Source: Octopus vulgaris (taxonomy: Eukaryota). Taken from it: DNA of 64,000 nucleotides. The stretch covers positions 69,192,001 to 69,256,000 of the forward strand of contig OX597819.1 of assembly GCA_951406725.2 (NCBI GenBank), read 5' to 3'. The position numbers and the translations under genes are program-made. Below the pieces are notes generated by a model. It was not told the DNA's origin, made no database searches, and saw only the letters and a program-made list of their open reading frames with translations. This document shows, piece by piece, positions 2,690 through 59,077 of this stretch (positions are counted from its first letter, which is position 1; every line of letters begins with the position of its first letter).

Positions 2690-2912
2690 GGTATAACTTG
2701 CTAAAATAATTTTATAAAAAATAGTTCAGTACCGGTTTCGGTCATTGAGACTTTTTCAACTATAAGTATGGAAAACAATTAATTTTGAAAAATTTAAATG
2801 AATTTTAAAAAAGAATAATATTTGCATAGTATTCAAATACAAGGGGCATTTTCCTTGTTTCTGCCTGTCTCTATCTCTTGTAGGTTCGGGGTCGTTGTGA
2901 ATTCTTGGCAGA
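2690..2912 (-). mobile_element. Hammerhead-bearing Penelope-type terminal-repeat element (family B)
   Basis: Reverse complement aligns with 21768-22000. Contains the HHR motif at 2727-2763. Confidence 0.65.
2727..2763 (-). ncRNA. Minimal type I hammerhead motif, U3-A8 variant (family B)
   Basis: Reverse complement reads TAG-TTGAAAA-AGTC-tcaat-GACC-GAAA-CCGG-TA-CTG. Stem III loop is palindromic. One stem II mismatch. Confidence 0.6.
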
Positions 2913-2994
2913 GAATAATAATAATAATAATAATAATAATAATAATAATAATAATAATAATAATAATAATAATAATAATAATAATAACAACAAC

Positions 2995-3146
2995 AACATC
3001 GAAAAATACCTTAGGAATGAGAACCCAGGTTGGAAATTTCCCTCAAGACACCTGATGAAGGCTGGAAGGTATATCAGCCGAAACATTGTGTTAACAACAA
3101 ACAAGATGAGGACAAATGTCCGTCAAATGTAGATAATGTAAATAAA
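2995..3146 (+). mobile_element. Hammerhead arm of family A element, following (AAT)n
   Basis: Same sequence as 32335-32490 and as the reverse complements of 21024-21210 and 31970-32115. Confidence 0.8.
3048..3091 (+). ncRNA. Minimal type I hammerhead motif (family A)
   Basis: ACAC-CTGATGA-A-GGCTG-gaaggtatat-CAGCC-GAAA-CA-TT-GTGT. Other copies read GAAA-CG-TT. Confidence 0.75.
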
Positions 3147-55383: not shown

Positions 55384-55544
55384 CCATCTAGAAAATTACA
55401 TATAATAGAAATATTAAATATAAGATGAAAAATATTATACTAAATATATACATTTTATTTATTATTTTGAACATTATTTAATCATCAGTATATTATTCTT
55501 TATCTTATTTTAAATATTTCTATTATATGTAATTTTCTAGATGG
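55384..55544. repeat. AT-rich inverted repeat with 32-bp perfect outer arms
   Basis: ccatctagaaaattacatataatagaaatatt pairs with aatatttctattatatgtaattttctagatgg. Confidence 0.85.
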
Positions 55545-57856
55545 TGAAATTTAATTTTTCATTTGAAAGTTTTTTTTCTAATTTATATATATATATATTA
55601 TATTTTGTGAAATTTGATTTAGTATTTCTAAATTAAATTCTTACCTGTAAGTTTGGAATAATATTCCTTCAAATCATATATATATATATATATATATATA
55701 TATACAAACCTACGCACACCAACATACACACACGCACATATATATATAGAAAGAGAGAGAAAGAGACAGGGTTAGATATACTTAAACACACACAACCATA
55801 TATATATACATATATATATATATATATATATATATATATATATATATATACGTATTTAAACATATATGTATATATAGGTATATATGGAAAGATAACTGGC
55901 TTTATTAGATAGATACATACATACATACATATATACATACGTACATACGTACATGCATAGATAGATAGATAGATAGATAGATAGATAGATAGATAGATAG
56001 ATAGATAGATAGATAGATAGATAGATAGATAGATAGATGGACAGTTATGGGTCTCAGTGTGAATGTATTTATCTCGATCTATTATTATGATTATCACCGC
56101 AATCACCACCACCGTTATCATCATAGAACACAAACGGTTGATATTTGTTGTAGAGATTATGCGTGAGTCAATGACATTGCATTCATGACGTAGCAGATTA
56201 AAGCAAACACCTCACCTAGTTATTGCCAGTAATTAGATTAAAATAGAATATTTTTCTCACCTCTGCTTCATTAAATTATTTTCTAATTAACTTTCAGATT
56301 TTTGTAAAATTTTTTCTTGCTATTTTTATTAATGTGTCTGTCGGTAGGTGTAGGTCTATATGTTGAGGAAGACACGCATGTATATGTATGTGAACATACA
56401 CCCGCCCACACACAAACAAATATATATGCATATATATATATATATATATATATATATATATATATATATATATATATATATATATAAATATATATATATA
56501 TATACAAATATATATAAATGTATATATATATGTGTGTATATATACATATATATATGTATGTACATATATGTTTGTATATATGCATATATTTATATATTTA
56601 TATCATACGTATATATATATATATATATATATATATACATGTACATATATATATATGTAGATAATATATATGTGTATGTATGTATATATCCATATATATA
56701 TATATATATATATATATGTTTACGTATGTATGTATATATATATATATATATATATATATGCCTTCCTCAATGTACATGGCTTACACTTAGACATAGAACT
56801 ACTTATGGTAAAAATAAATATGAATATAAAGACAAATGCTTGTGTGAGTTTGTTTATGTGTGTGTGTGTGTTGAATTGCTTTAATTACTCTTTCCAGCCA
56901 CATCACAAATGCTCTCAGCCATCGCCTCCGTAGTTGGTTTCATCTGTTGACTTTATTCTCTGCCATTTGTATCCTGATAAATGTACACTTTTTTCTTCCA
57001 ATGCTTCTACATTCAGTTTCTCATTCTTTCATTCTATTTCACTTTTCAGCCTTATTTTATTTTCAGAGTAATTACCTTTCCAATGGTCAATCTTGTGTTA
57101 TTTAGTTTTTTATGAATGATGGATGCCAACGCTGCTGTCCTACTCTGGGTTTCCTGCCTTGATATACATTCATGTGGAACCTTGGATAATAAGGTGCCAA
57201 TTTCATTCTTGGAAACCTCTGCATCTGCTTCATATAGAGCCGCATATGACTGTGTTTCTGTATATGCATGGATGTATGCACACACAGACAATGATATGTA
57301 TATATTTATATATGTTATAAATGTATGCATATATGTTTATGTATGTATGAATATTCCACAATATCTCCCAAAGACAGATGCAAAAATTTAAGCCTAATTA
57401 GATTATGAAGAAAAGAGAACCAACACCAATATTAATGACACCCACAAACTATGAATCGTTAAGCACTTTCCACTCCACAAGAACGAAGGACAATTCAGAA
57501 TACCAAGTCATAGACATAAGACATTCACGATCTAGCATAAAAACTGTCCATTCCCATCATCAGTTGCCAAACGAATATCGCTATCGTTTCGACACCAGGG
57601 CAGTACCATTCAATCTGGCGGTGTCAACAGCGTCAAAAAATATAGTCTTTCTGAGAACACCAGCTTATAACTTCAAGTAACAACATCGAAAGAAAGAAAT
57701 GGTTACAGTTTAGAAATTAGTACTGATAAAACAAAGAACGGACATTCAGTTAACATAAGATATATACATTTAAATAAACGTACATACGCGCGCACAAACA
57801 CACAAACACTCACGTACACACGCGCGCGCGCGGCACAGACACATACACACACACTA

Positions 57857-59077
57857 TGCCTGTGTGGTAAGAAGCTTGCTTTCCAACCACATAGTTCTGG
57901 TTTCAGACCCACTTCGTGGCAACTTCGTCGAGTGTCCTCTACTCTAGACTCGGGCTGACGAAATGCTTGTGAGTGGACTTGGTAGACGGAAACTGGCAGA
58001 AACCCGTCATATGTATATATATATATATATATATATATATATATATATATATATATATATATATATATATATATATATATATATATATATATATATATAT
58101 ATATATATATGTATATATATATGTATATATATATATATATATATATATATATATATATATATATATATATATATATATATATATATATATATATATATAT
58201 ATATATTTACAAGATAAGGGCACAAAAAAAATTCTAATGCATAAATTTAATGGTTATCGACATTTTTTTGTTTCGGCGTATCTGGCATTAGAATTTTTCT
58301 TCTGCCCTTATCTTGTAAATTATGTATAAATTTTACCTTTAAAGGCATTTTTTGATATGCTGGCCATTGATAACATTTTTTTCCCGAAAAAATTTTTATC
58401 CTATATCAATTATAAATAGATTACTGTTTCTCTTCCGGATTCTATCACTCTGTGAAAGTTTCTAGTTTGAATCACACGTGTTTCGAGGTGCACCTAAGAT
58501 TTTTCTATTTGGATATATTTGGGGTACTTAAGTCTGCTCGGGACTTGGTGCTTGCTTCTTCCGTGGGTATGAATAAGTATTTCATTTATATCTCACGTAT
58601 GTGCCGCTGAAGAGGGGACAATTTCTTGTGAATTAAGCCCGAAATTGGACCAATACGGTAATAACGAAATTTTTAGAGATTTCTATCGGTTTGTTTCGAG
58701 ACGCATACATTTAATGGTTATCGACAATTTTTTTTGTTTCGGCGTATCTGGCATTAGAATTTTTCTTCTGTCCTTATCTTGTAAATTAAGATTAAATTTT
58801 ACCTTTAAAGGCATTTTTTGATATGCTGGCCATTGATAAAATTTTTTTCCCGAAAAAAAAAATTTATCCTATATCAATTATTATATATATATATATATGT
58901 GTGTAAAGTGTGTGTGTGTGTGTGTGTGTGTGTGTGTTGGGTGTGTATGTGTGTGTATGCATTTCTGTATCGGTTCCCCTAACTTCGCTTGACAACAGAT
59001 GCCTGGGGTGTTTGCGTCACCGTAAGTTGGCGATTCGGTGAAAGAAACCGATAGAATAAGTACTAAGCTTACAAAGA
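57857..59077 (+). mobile_element. SINE family 2 split at its internal (TA)n by a nested insertion
   Basis: Head and core at 57857-58010. 3' half at about 58960-59077. Confidence 0.75.
58205..58881 (+). mobile_element. Retrozyme/PLE-like partial-tandem element with intact hammerhead (family F)
   Basis: ~175-bp direct repeats 58239-58413 and 58703-58881. Inverted 5' piece 58205-58240. HHR TGCCG-CTGAAGA-GGG..CCC-GAAA-TTGGACCAA-TA-CGGTA at 58602-58660. Confidence 0.85.

Follow-up and report, generated by a model that had tools for sequence, protein, structure and literature searches.

Minimal hammerhead ribozymes of Penelope-like elements (PLEs), with their palindromic stem III, their U3-A8 core and their occurrence in inverted pairs, are already published, as are PLE-derived retrozymes. 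The U3-A8 pair is known from schistosome PLEs (PMC4209133) and from other natural hammerheads (PMC3088659). For schistosome motifs, minimal hammerheads were measured to cleave weakly and only as dimers (PMC4209133), and the text of PMC8557442 treats the role of the hammerhead in PLEs as still open. Here we describe a 64-kb stretch of Octopus vulgaris DNA (GenBank assembly GCA_951406725.2, contig OX597819.1, positions 69,192,001 to 69,256,000; hereafter the window) that is 34% GC and microsatellite-rich, from a genome of 2.8 Gb in 227 contigs. The window contains 19 hammerhead copies from 12 repeat families, and no host gene is evident among its open reading frames (ORFs). Very probably these copies are the ends of protein-coding PLEs (six families) together with six non-coding families that likely use the same enzymes.

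Hammerheads were identified with a descriptor combining the core, stem II, a palindromic stem III and stem I, with an optional extra base after position 9, and dinucleotide shuffles in blocks of 200 nucleotides (nt) served as the control. With at most one core mismatch and a perfect palindrome, 6 sites were found in the window compared to 0.075 ± 0.26 in shuffled sequence (40 shuffles, maximum 1). A relaxed descriptor found 11 compared to 0.6 (maximum 2), and the palindrome anchor alone gave 17 compared to 2.5 ± 1.6 (100 shuffles, maximum 7). The dense motif population reported by a first-pass annotation of this DNA, which had named shuffled sequence as its check, is therefore upheld in the window. 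An earlier descriptor without the extra nucleotide after position 9 recovered only 3 sites, and a general repeat search was dominated by microsatellites. Rfam gathering thresholds gave no match in the window or in one randomly sampled stretch (L266), as expected for minimal variants. The proposed annotation blind spot is thus real for Rfam, which misses all copies at these thresholds, but protein-based repeat annotation would be expected to catch the coding families through their longer copies. An Rfam scan of the window by E-value produced microsatellite-driven miRNA matches only (among the 150 of 217 matches listed). One further anchor, at 58484 (-), was discarded as a hammerhead: it lies antisense within a family J unit, has G at position 17, and its core is absent from the family consensus.

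All 18 sites of the first-pass annotation display the layout of a type I hammerhead or its decayed remains, on the strand implied by that layout, and a 19th copy (family K) had been overlooked; all 19 match dispersed repeat families. Read by eye, 13 of the 18 sites have a perfectly palindromic stem III; at three (3048, 27115 and 40648) the palindrome is broken by one substitution, and at two (40084 and 58602) it is of odd length and interrupted. The core (positions 3-9, 12-14 and 15.1/16.1, with either C3-G8 or U3-A8) is intact at nine sites by the same reading, among them two family B copies in which the closing pair of stem II is unpaired. Two sites have a core variant common to their family (U6 at 15419, C4 at 25698), and the remaining seven show private decay (11220, 15750, 21114, 32022, 32369, 40648 and 41697). 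While the copy at 15750 is as badly decayed as had been claimed, core decay is commoner than the claim allowed.

Ribozyme-centred DNA queries for the 12 families returned at least 40 matches each, with first-look candidates (lower bounds) ranging from 60 for family D to 3150 for family A. The analyses per family rest on the best 20-30 loci of each and are biased towards the subfamily present in the window. Six families (11 window copies) are linked to coding sequence and six (8 copies) are seemingly non-coding. Beyond microsatellite the families are unrelated, save for C and L (74% over 300 nt); the 18 sites fall into 11 families, or 10 if these two are merged, in line with the roughly ten proposed. 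Likewise borne out was the claim that stems differ between families yet still pair, since the stems of the family consensuses lack any common sequence and nonetheless pair around the same core. In 10 of 12 families the consensus regains a core that is canonical or U3-A8, with a compensating U3-A8 pair in B, E and K; C and L remain variants. Insertions have fixed 3′ ends and ragged 5′ ends, and some copies exceed one unit and span the cut site. Inverted upstream arms occur in all 12 families, from 1/25 loci (C) up to 13/20 (J) and 15/30 (A), the other coding families showing 4/25 (B), 10/20 (E), 3/20 (G), 8/20 (H) and 6/25 (I). One further family with an intact U3-A8 core, absent from the window, appeared in the random sample (L279:8334-8363(-) and L295:9780-9809(-)).

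Families A, B, E, G, H and I are 5′-truncated 3′ ends of protein-coding PLEs. Same-sense matches to PLE proteins lie upstream of the ribozyme in 3/30 (A), 5/25 (B), 10/20 (E), 13/20 (G), 7/20 (H) and 5/25 (I) loci. Family A is preceded by a GIY-YIG endonuclease and a reverse transcriptase (RT; RVT_1, E-value 1.2e-09), and longer copies of the other five families run into endonuclease ORFs, those of E into RT as well. An endonuclease region is thus present in all six families and RT in two, A and E; the RT of B, G, H and I would lie outside the 1.5-kb flanks analysed. GIY-YIG matches are weak for B, E and G (E-values 5e-04 to 3e-03). Families I and H match G (1e-31 and 9e-15), and family E matches the RT of A (8e-15). 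Cysteine motifs alone would place A with the Penelope/Poseidon type, B and E with the Neptune type and G and I with the Hydra type, H being related to G: family A has two cysteines within GIY-YIG and lacks the linker finger, B and E have a CX4CxxC linker, and G combines CxCX5C with a terminal CxxC/CxH and lacks the internal cysteine pair. Within the window itself, only family H has a clear coding remnant (Table 1). The family G ORF (e.g. L231:3-1190), which has Hydra-clade endonuclease motifs, contains a long Asn/Asp-rich insert that separates the RT thumb from the endonuclease linker. Copies of this family recur in a long segmental repeat on C30 at ~19.9-21.0 Mb (L234, L239 and L245).

Upstream of families C, D, F, J, K and L, PLE protein matches were detected in 2 of 125 regions, both more than 1.1 kb away and one of them antisense. 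In D, F, J and K the element's own tail lies upstream of the unit, that is, head-to-tail, with units of ~345, 357, 466 and 348 nt, respectively, and a longest ATG-initiated ORF of 36-67 amino acids. Periods were ~345 nt in D (9/20 loci at 311-371), 337-369 nt in F (10/20), 464-466 nt in J (5/20) and 346-351 nt in K (2/20). Sense arms of family J stop at either of two points in 19/20 loci, 137-142 or 224-232 nt past the cut site; six of 20 copies are longer than one unit, and an inverted arm is present at 13/20 loci (15/20 by looser mapping). Contigs from three presumed RNA runs and one unclassified run cover the J unit piecewise, and ends or circles are not readable from them. Families C (~270 nt) and L (~200 nt) consist of single short units flanked by (TA)n or (TATC)n tracts. 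Judged by unit organisation, D, F, J and K are retrozyme-like, most weakly so K, and bear the insertion marks of PLEs; the non-coding elements are likely copied by PLE enzymes, in keeping with proposals for retrozymes (PMC7229834; bioRxiv 10.64898/2026.07.22.740005). Copies of K also recur in inverted repeats on C22 near 15.95 Mb. A young array met in the random sample (L266:2090-4760; C1:20002090-20004760) lies in (TA)n and repeats a non-coding unit of 359 nt twice in inverted and five times in direct orientation. Its hammerheads are intact and identical, the units agree at 356-359 of 359 positions, the circular fold has z -4.1, and the direct arm starts a few bases ahead of a cut site; among the loci analysed it is the best candidate for an active retrozyme.

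The 3′ untranslated region (UTR) of family A consists, in order, of the stop codon, 30 nt, a tRNA-like module, (AAT)n and the ribozyme. Among 30 loci, 7 fail to reach the module, 5 terminate within it (+9 to +42), 14 end at -6 to +8 of its +1, and 4 extend into the ORF; when only the 18 loci that extend to +8 or beyond are counted, 14 end at -6 to +8 (binomial p about 2e-14 at an assumed 6% chance). This clustering suggests that polymerase III transcripts may be the templates of short family A copies. Counting against such a route, the ORF end has 2730 candidates, nearly equal to the 3150 of the ribozyme end. The A and B boxes of the module were read by eye only; ARAGORN recognised 0/8 loci, and no Rfam tRNA match was found in the locus scanned (L036). 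Lying within the 3′ UTR of a coding PLE, the module also leaves the short copies dependent on their parent's sequence. The module may be a known octopus short interspersed nuclear element (SINE), candidates being the tRNA-Arg SINEs OR1/OR2.

As a comparison for the window, 399.9 kb were sampled from 27 contigs in 40 stretches of 10 kb each, placed at round-number positions. They contain 44 anchors compared to 8-18 in five shuffles. By this standard 7.0 anchors would be expected in the window, which has 17 (Poisson p 0.001; the window was chosen for density). After shuffle subtraction the excess is one per 4.4 kb in the window and one per 13 kb elsewhere, so that the first-pass figure of one per 4 kb holds for the window, which is about threefold denser, but not for the genome at large. 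Motifs with both an intact core and a palindromic stem III number 2 in the window and 18 in the sample (0 in two shuffles). The 18 hits of the sample reduce to 16 distinct motifs, which come from 8 stretches, a single array accounting for 7 of them; the window thus has no enrichment of intact motifs. Extrapolation gives ~200,000 per genome from the anchor excess and roughly 24,000-110,000 insertions from the intact cores. Published counts, obtained with other descriptors, are ~9,000 in Xenopus and ~4,000 in coelacanth (PMC4209133), more than 6,000 in one coral and, for axolotl, as many as 120,000 retrozymes (PMC7229834); the octopus load is high yet within the known range.

Published PLE biology suggests how such copies could arise. 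The RT-endonuclease would nick its target, often (TA)n, and reverse transcription would start from a fixed priming site downstream of the ribozyme and mostly halt early, and because of this early stop the hammerhead end would be more numerous than the ORF. A second priming or a template switch would create the inverted arm. In a tandem transcript, two hammerheads would pair through their palindromic stem III and cleave slowly, releasing unit-length RNA that may circularise and template copies longer than one unit. The H copy is predicted to cofold as a full double hammerhead. Most window copies are probably inert relics.

Several observations weigh against this combination of coding and PLE-dependent non-coding families. 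The full double hammerhead is the minimum-energy dimer in only one of eight copies tested (H), the other dimers gaining 4-12 kcal/mol in other folds, and cleavage, circular RNA and expression are predicted steps only. On the coding side, GIY-YIG Pfam scores fall under the curated cut-off, I and H have no GIY-YIG match of their own, the thumb region of B fails to align with that of A, and a full-length intact PLE was not retrieved among the loci fetched. On the non-coding side, the protein queries were derived from the coding families, which makes the test one-sided and biased towards those families, and a coding parent of C, L or K possibly lies outside the 20-25 loci of each. Tandem K loci are just 2/20, and the circular folds of D, F, J and K are no more structured than shuffles (z +0.1 to -1.6), unlike published retrozyme circles. 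Non-coding and coding families share nothing beyond microsatellite that would point to a mobilising partner.

Other explanations were considered for the set as a whole and for its variant cores. That the motifs are chance matches in AT-rich, microsatellite-rich DNA draws on the anchors that arise even in shuffled sequence and on a few one-mismatch matches in the random sample that look spurious. It is refuted by the control counts under both descriptors and by the membership of each site in a multicopy family, with the core restored in most consensuses, and its probability is practically negligible. The first-pass annotation had instead read the motifs as a radiation of non-coding ribozyme retroelements, considered here as purely non-coding and as keeping a density of about one per 4 kb throughout the genome. 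The window does resemble this, as its copies are mostly ORF-free (one clear and one weak tblastn match), and no coding parent was seen for six of 12 families in 125 loci, four of these families having retrozyme-like units; a young seven-copy array was also met in 400 kb of unselected DNA. Nevertheless, same-sense ORFs for RT or endonuclease precede the ribozyme in A, B, E, G, H and I and refute it for six of the 12 families and 11 of the 19 copies, and the density elsewhere is lower, making it highly improbable for the whole set. What stands of that annotation is that the window's minimal type I hammerheads are of the PLE/retrozyme type and come from some ten unrelated families, and that the genome holds many such motifs.

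The variant cores raise the idea that some families have a hammerhead fold that has ceased to act as an enzyme and persists as a handle for recognition or priming by the PLE RT, or as a signal for dimerisation. Family L (1651 first-look candidates) has U at position 6 in 11/11 copies encountered incidentally across 1.13 Mb of flanking and randomly sampled DNA, from divergent subfamilies in which stems I-III are kept. Because changes at position 6 lower activity (A6C gave low activity; text of PMC3088659), family L may spread without efficient cleavage. Of the C-type copies met by chance, three have C4 and five are canonical; the C4 subfamily is young (96-97% identity, 1403 candidates), and Naiad PLEs are described as spreading without canonical hammerheads (PMC8557442). 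Yet both U4C and A6C variants retain low activity (PMC3088659), the compensating pair in B, E and K points to ancestral selection on catalysis, and kept stems may reflect just a short time since the founder mutation, so that a loss of enzymatic role appears doubtful. A broader proposition joins three parts: the genome holds ~100,000-200,000 PLE-type hammerheads; a Poseidon PLE acquired a tRNA-type polymerase III promoter within its 3′ UTR, thereby giving rise to SINE-like copies of its tail that bear the ribozyme; and L spread thousands of times with a fixed A6-to-U change, its fold being an RT handle as well as an enzyme. Taken jointly, these are unlikely to hold.

Table 1. Hammerhead copies and associated features of the window (positions counted from its first nucleotide).
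Feature	Position	Strand	Description
Family B hammerhead	2727-2762	-	U3-A8 core, 6-nt palindrome, stem II closing pair unpaired or A-U; element ~2688-2879; 3′ end of putative Neptune-type PLE
Family A hammerhead	3047-3092	+	Core intact; element ~2911-3145, truncated in (AAT)n tract; 3′ end of putative Poseidon-type PLE
Family D hammerhead	11220-11259	+	G8 mutated; non-coding ~345-nt head-to-tail unit, 353-nt period in this copy
Family L hammerhead	15419-15454	-	U6 core variant; left arm of inverted pair; element ~15311-15471, short and non-coding
Family L hammerhead	15749-15784	+	Badly decayed; right arm of inverted pair
Family A hammerhead	21113-21162	-	Decayed at positions 4 and 12
Family B hammerhead	21926-21961	+	U3-A8 core; element homology extends to ~21326
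Family C hammerhead	25697-25731	+	C at position 4; non-coding ~270-nt element between (TA)n tracts
Family E hammerhead	26231-26268	-	U3-A8 core intact; 3′ end of putative Neptune-type PLE
Family F hammerhead	27115-27170	+	Core intact; palindrome of 10 nt, altered at one position; 357-nt non-coding unit
Family A hammerhead	32021-32066	-	Decayed; left arm of head-to-head pair
tRNA-like module	32245-32318	-	A-box/B-box-like by eye; 5′ end of family A left arm, which ends approximately at its +1
Family A hammerhead	32367-32414	+	G5 mutated; right arm of head-to-head pair
Family K hammerhead	37769-37815	-	Consensus U3-A8 core, 10-nt palindrome; non-coding ~346-351-nt unit
Family G hammerhead	40084-40165	+	Intact, long stem II; element ~39746-40564; 3′ UTR of putative Hydra-type PLE
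Family C subfamily hammerhead	40648-40682	-	Positions 3-9 canonical, 16.1 mutated; element ~40512-40764
Endonuclease C-terminus remnant	41351-41413	+	Upstream of family H hammerhead; tblastn E-value 3e-06
Family H hammerhead	41695-41781	+	A6 mutated here but present in the consensus; palindrome of 8 nt; predicted double hammerhead; 3′ end of PLE related to G
Family I hammerhead	54825-54908	-	Intact; left arm of inverted pair; 3′ end of putative Hydra-type PLE
Family I hammerhead	55081-55165	+	Core intact, stem I weakened; right arm of inverted pair
Family J insertion	58193-58881	+	Inverted arm of 48 nt and 643 nt of non-coding sequence (1.4 copies of the 466-nt unit); hammerhead 58600-58660, core intact, 11-nt interrupted palindrome

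Elsewhere in the window, a weak tblastn match to the family G protein at 37389-37526 (+) (E-value 0.008) is possibly a further PLE fragment, and an abundant, hammerhead-free SINE-like repeat occupies 38884-39250 as two tandem 184-bp copies. A stop-free frame of 108 amino acids at 49659-49985 (+) may resemble the N-terminus of a mariner transposase.

The genome offers a natural series for testing the role of PLE hammerheads: cores are canonical, U3-A8, C4 or U6, palindromes measure 4-11 nt, the carriers include both coding and non-coding elements, and some arrays are young and near-identical. A large class also seems to escape Rfam-based ribozyme counts in cephalopods, such as the 235 of giant squid (PMC6962438).

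The closest described ribozymes are the metazoan PLE hammerheads of pseudo-long terminal repeats (Cervera and de la Pena 2014, PMC4209133). Shared with these are the short palindromic stem III, the additional nucleotide that separates position 9 from 10.1, the covariant U3-A8 core, the many divergent families per genome, the predominance of single motifs from truncated PLEs and the opposite-strand pairs 100-700 bp apart. In contrast, palindromes here reach 8-11 nt and stem II regions ~55 nt, and neither octopus nor family-wide U6 and C4 cores are named in the consulted text of that study. The coding families resemble the endonuclease-positive PLE clades Penelope/Poseidon, Neptune and Hydra (Craig et al. 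2021, PMC8557442) in the RT followed by a C-terminal GIY-YIG, in the cysteine motifs of A, B, E and G, in inverted 5′ arms and in (TA)n targets, whereas the tRNA-like module of family A is not described in the text consulted. Short family A copies, with a promoter-like head followed by a hammerhead, recall the SINE-like Sm-alpha/Sj-alpha elements of schistosomes (PMC6765202), but the family A head lies 30 nt past the stop codon of a coding PLE.

Families D, F, J and K are comparable to metazoan non-LTR retrozymes (Cervera and de la Pena 2020, PMC7229834; Li, Clavereau and Pollet 2026, bioRxiv 10.64898/2026.07.22.740005), whose non-coding, low-GC units are likewise a few hundred nt long, follow one another head-to-tail and contain a single type I hammerhead; these retrozymes co-occur with PLEs and are proposed to be mobilised by them. 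While the 2020 definition calls for canonical hammerheads with a loop 1-loop 2 contact (PMC7229834), D, F, J and K have a minimal PLE-type ribozyme, which the definition in the 2026 preprint also admits; the text of that preprint contains no mention of cephalopods. Unlike published retrozymes, D, F, J and K occur mostly as 1-2 units with inverted arms and are weakly structured. A literature search, which lay outside subscription papers, Repbase/Dfam and supplements, found no description of octopus PLE hammerheads, of a tRNA module in a PLE 3′ UTR or of a natural A6U family. Taken together, this is a known kind of system, abundant in this genome, and the window is an ordinary pile of decayed repeats; less ordinary are the tRNA-like module of family A, at which most short copies begin, and the amplification of family L with U6.

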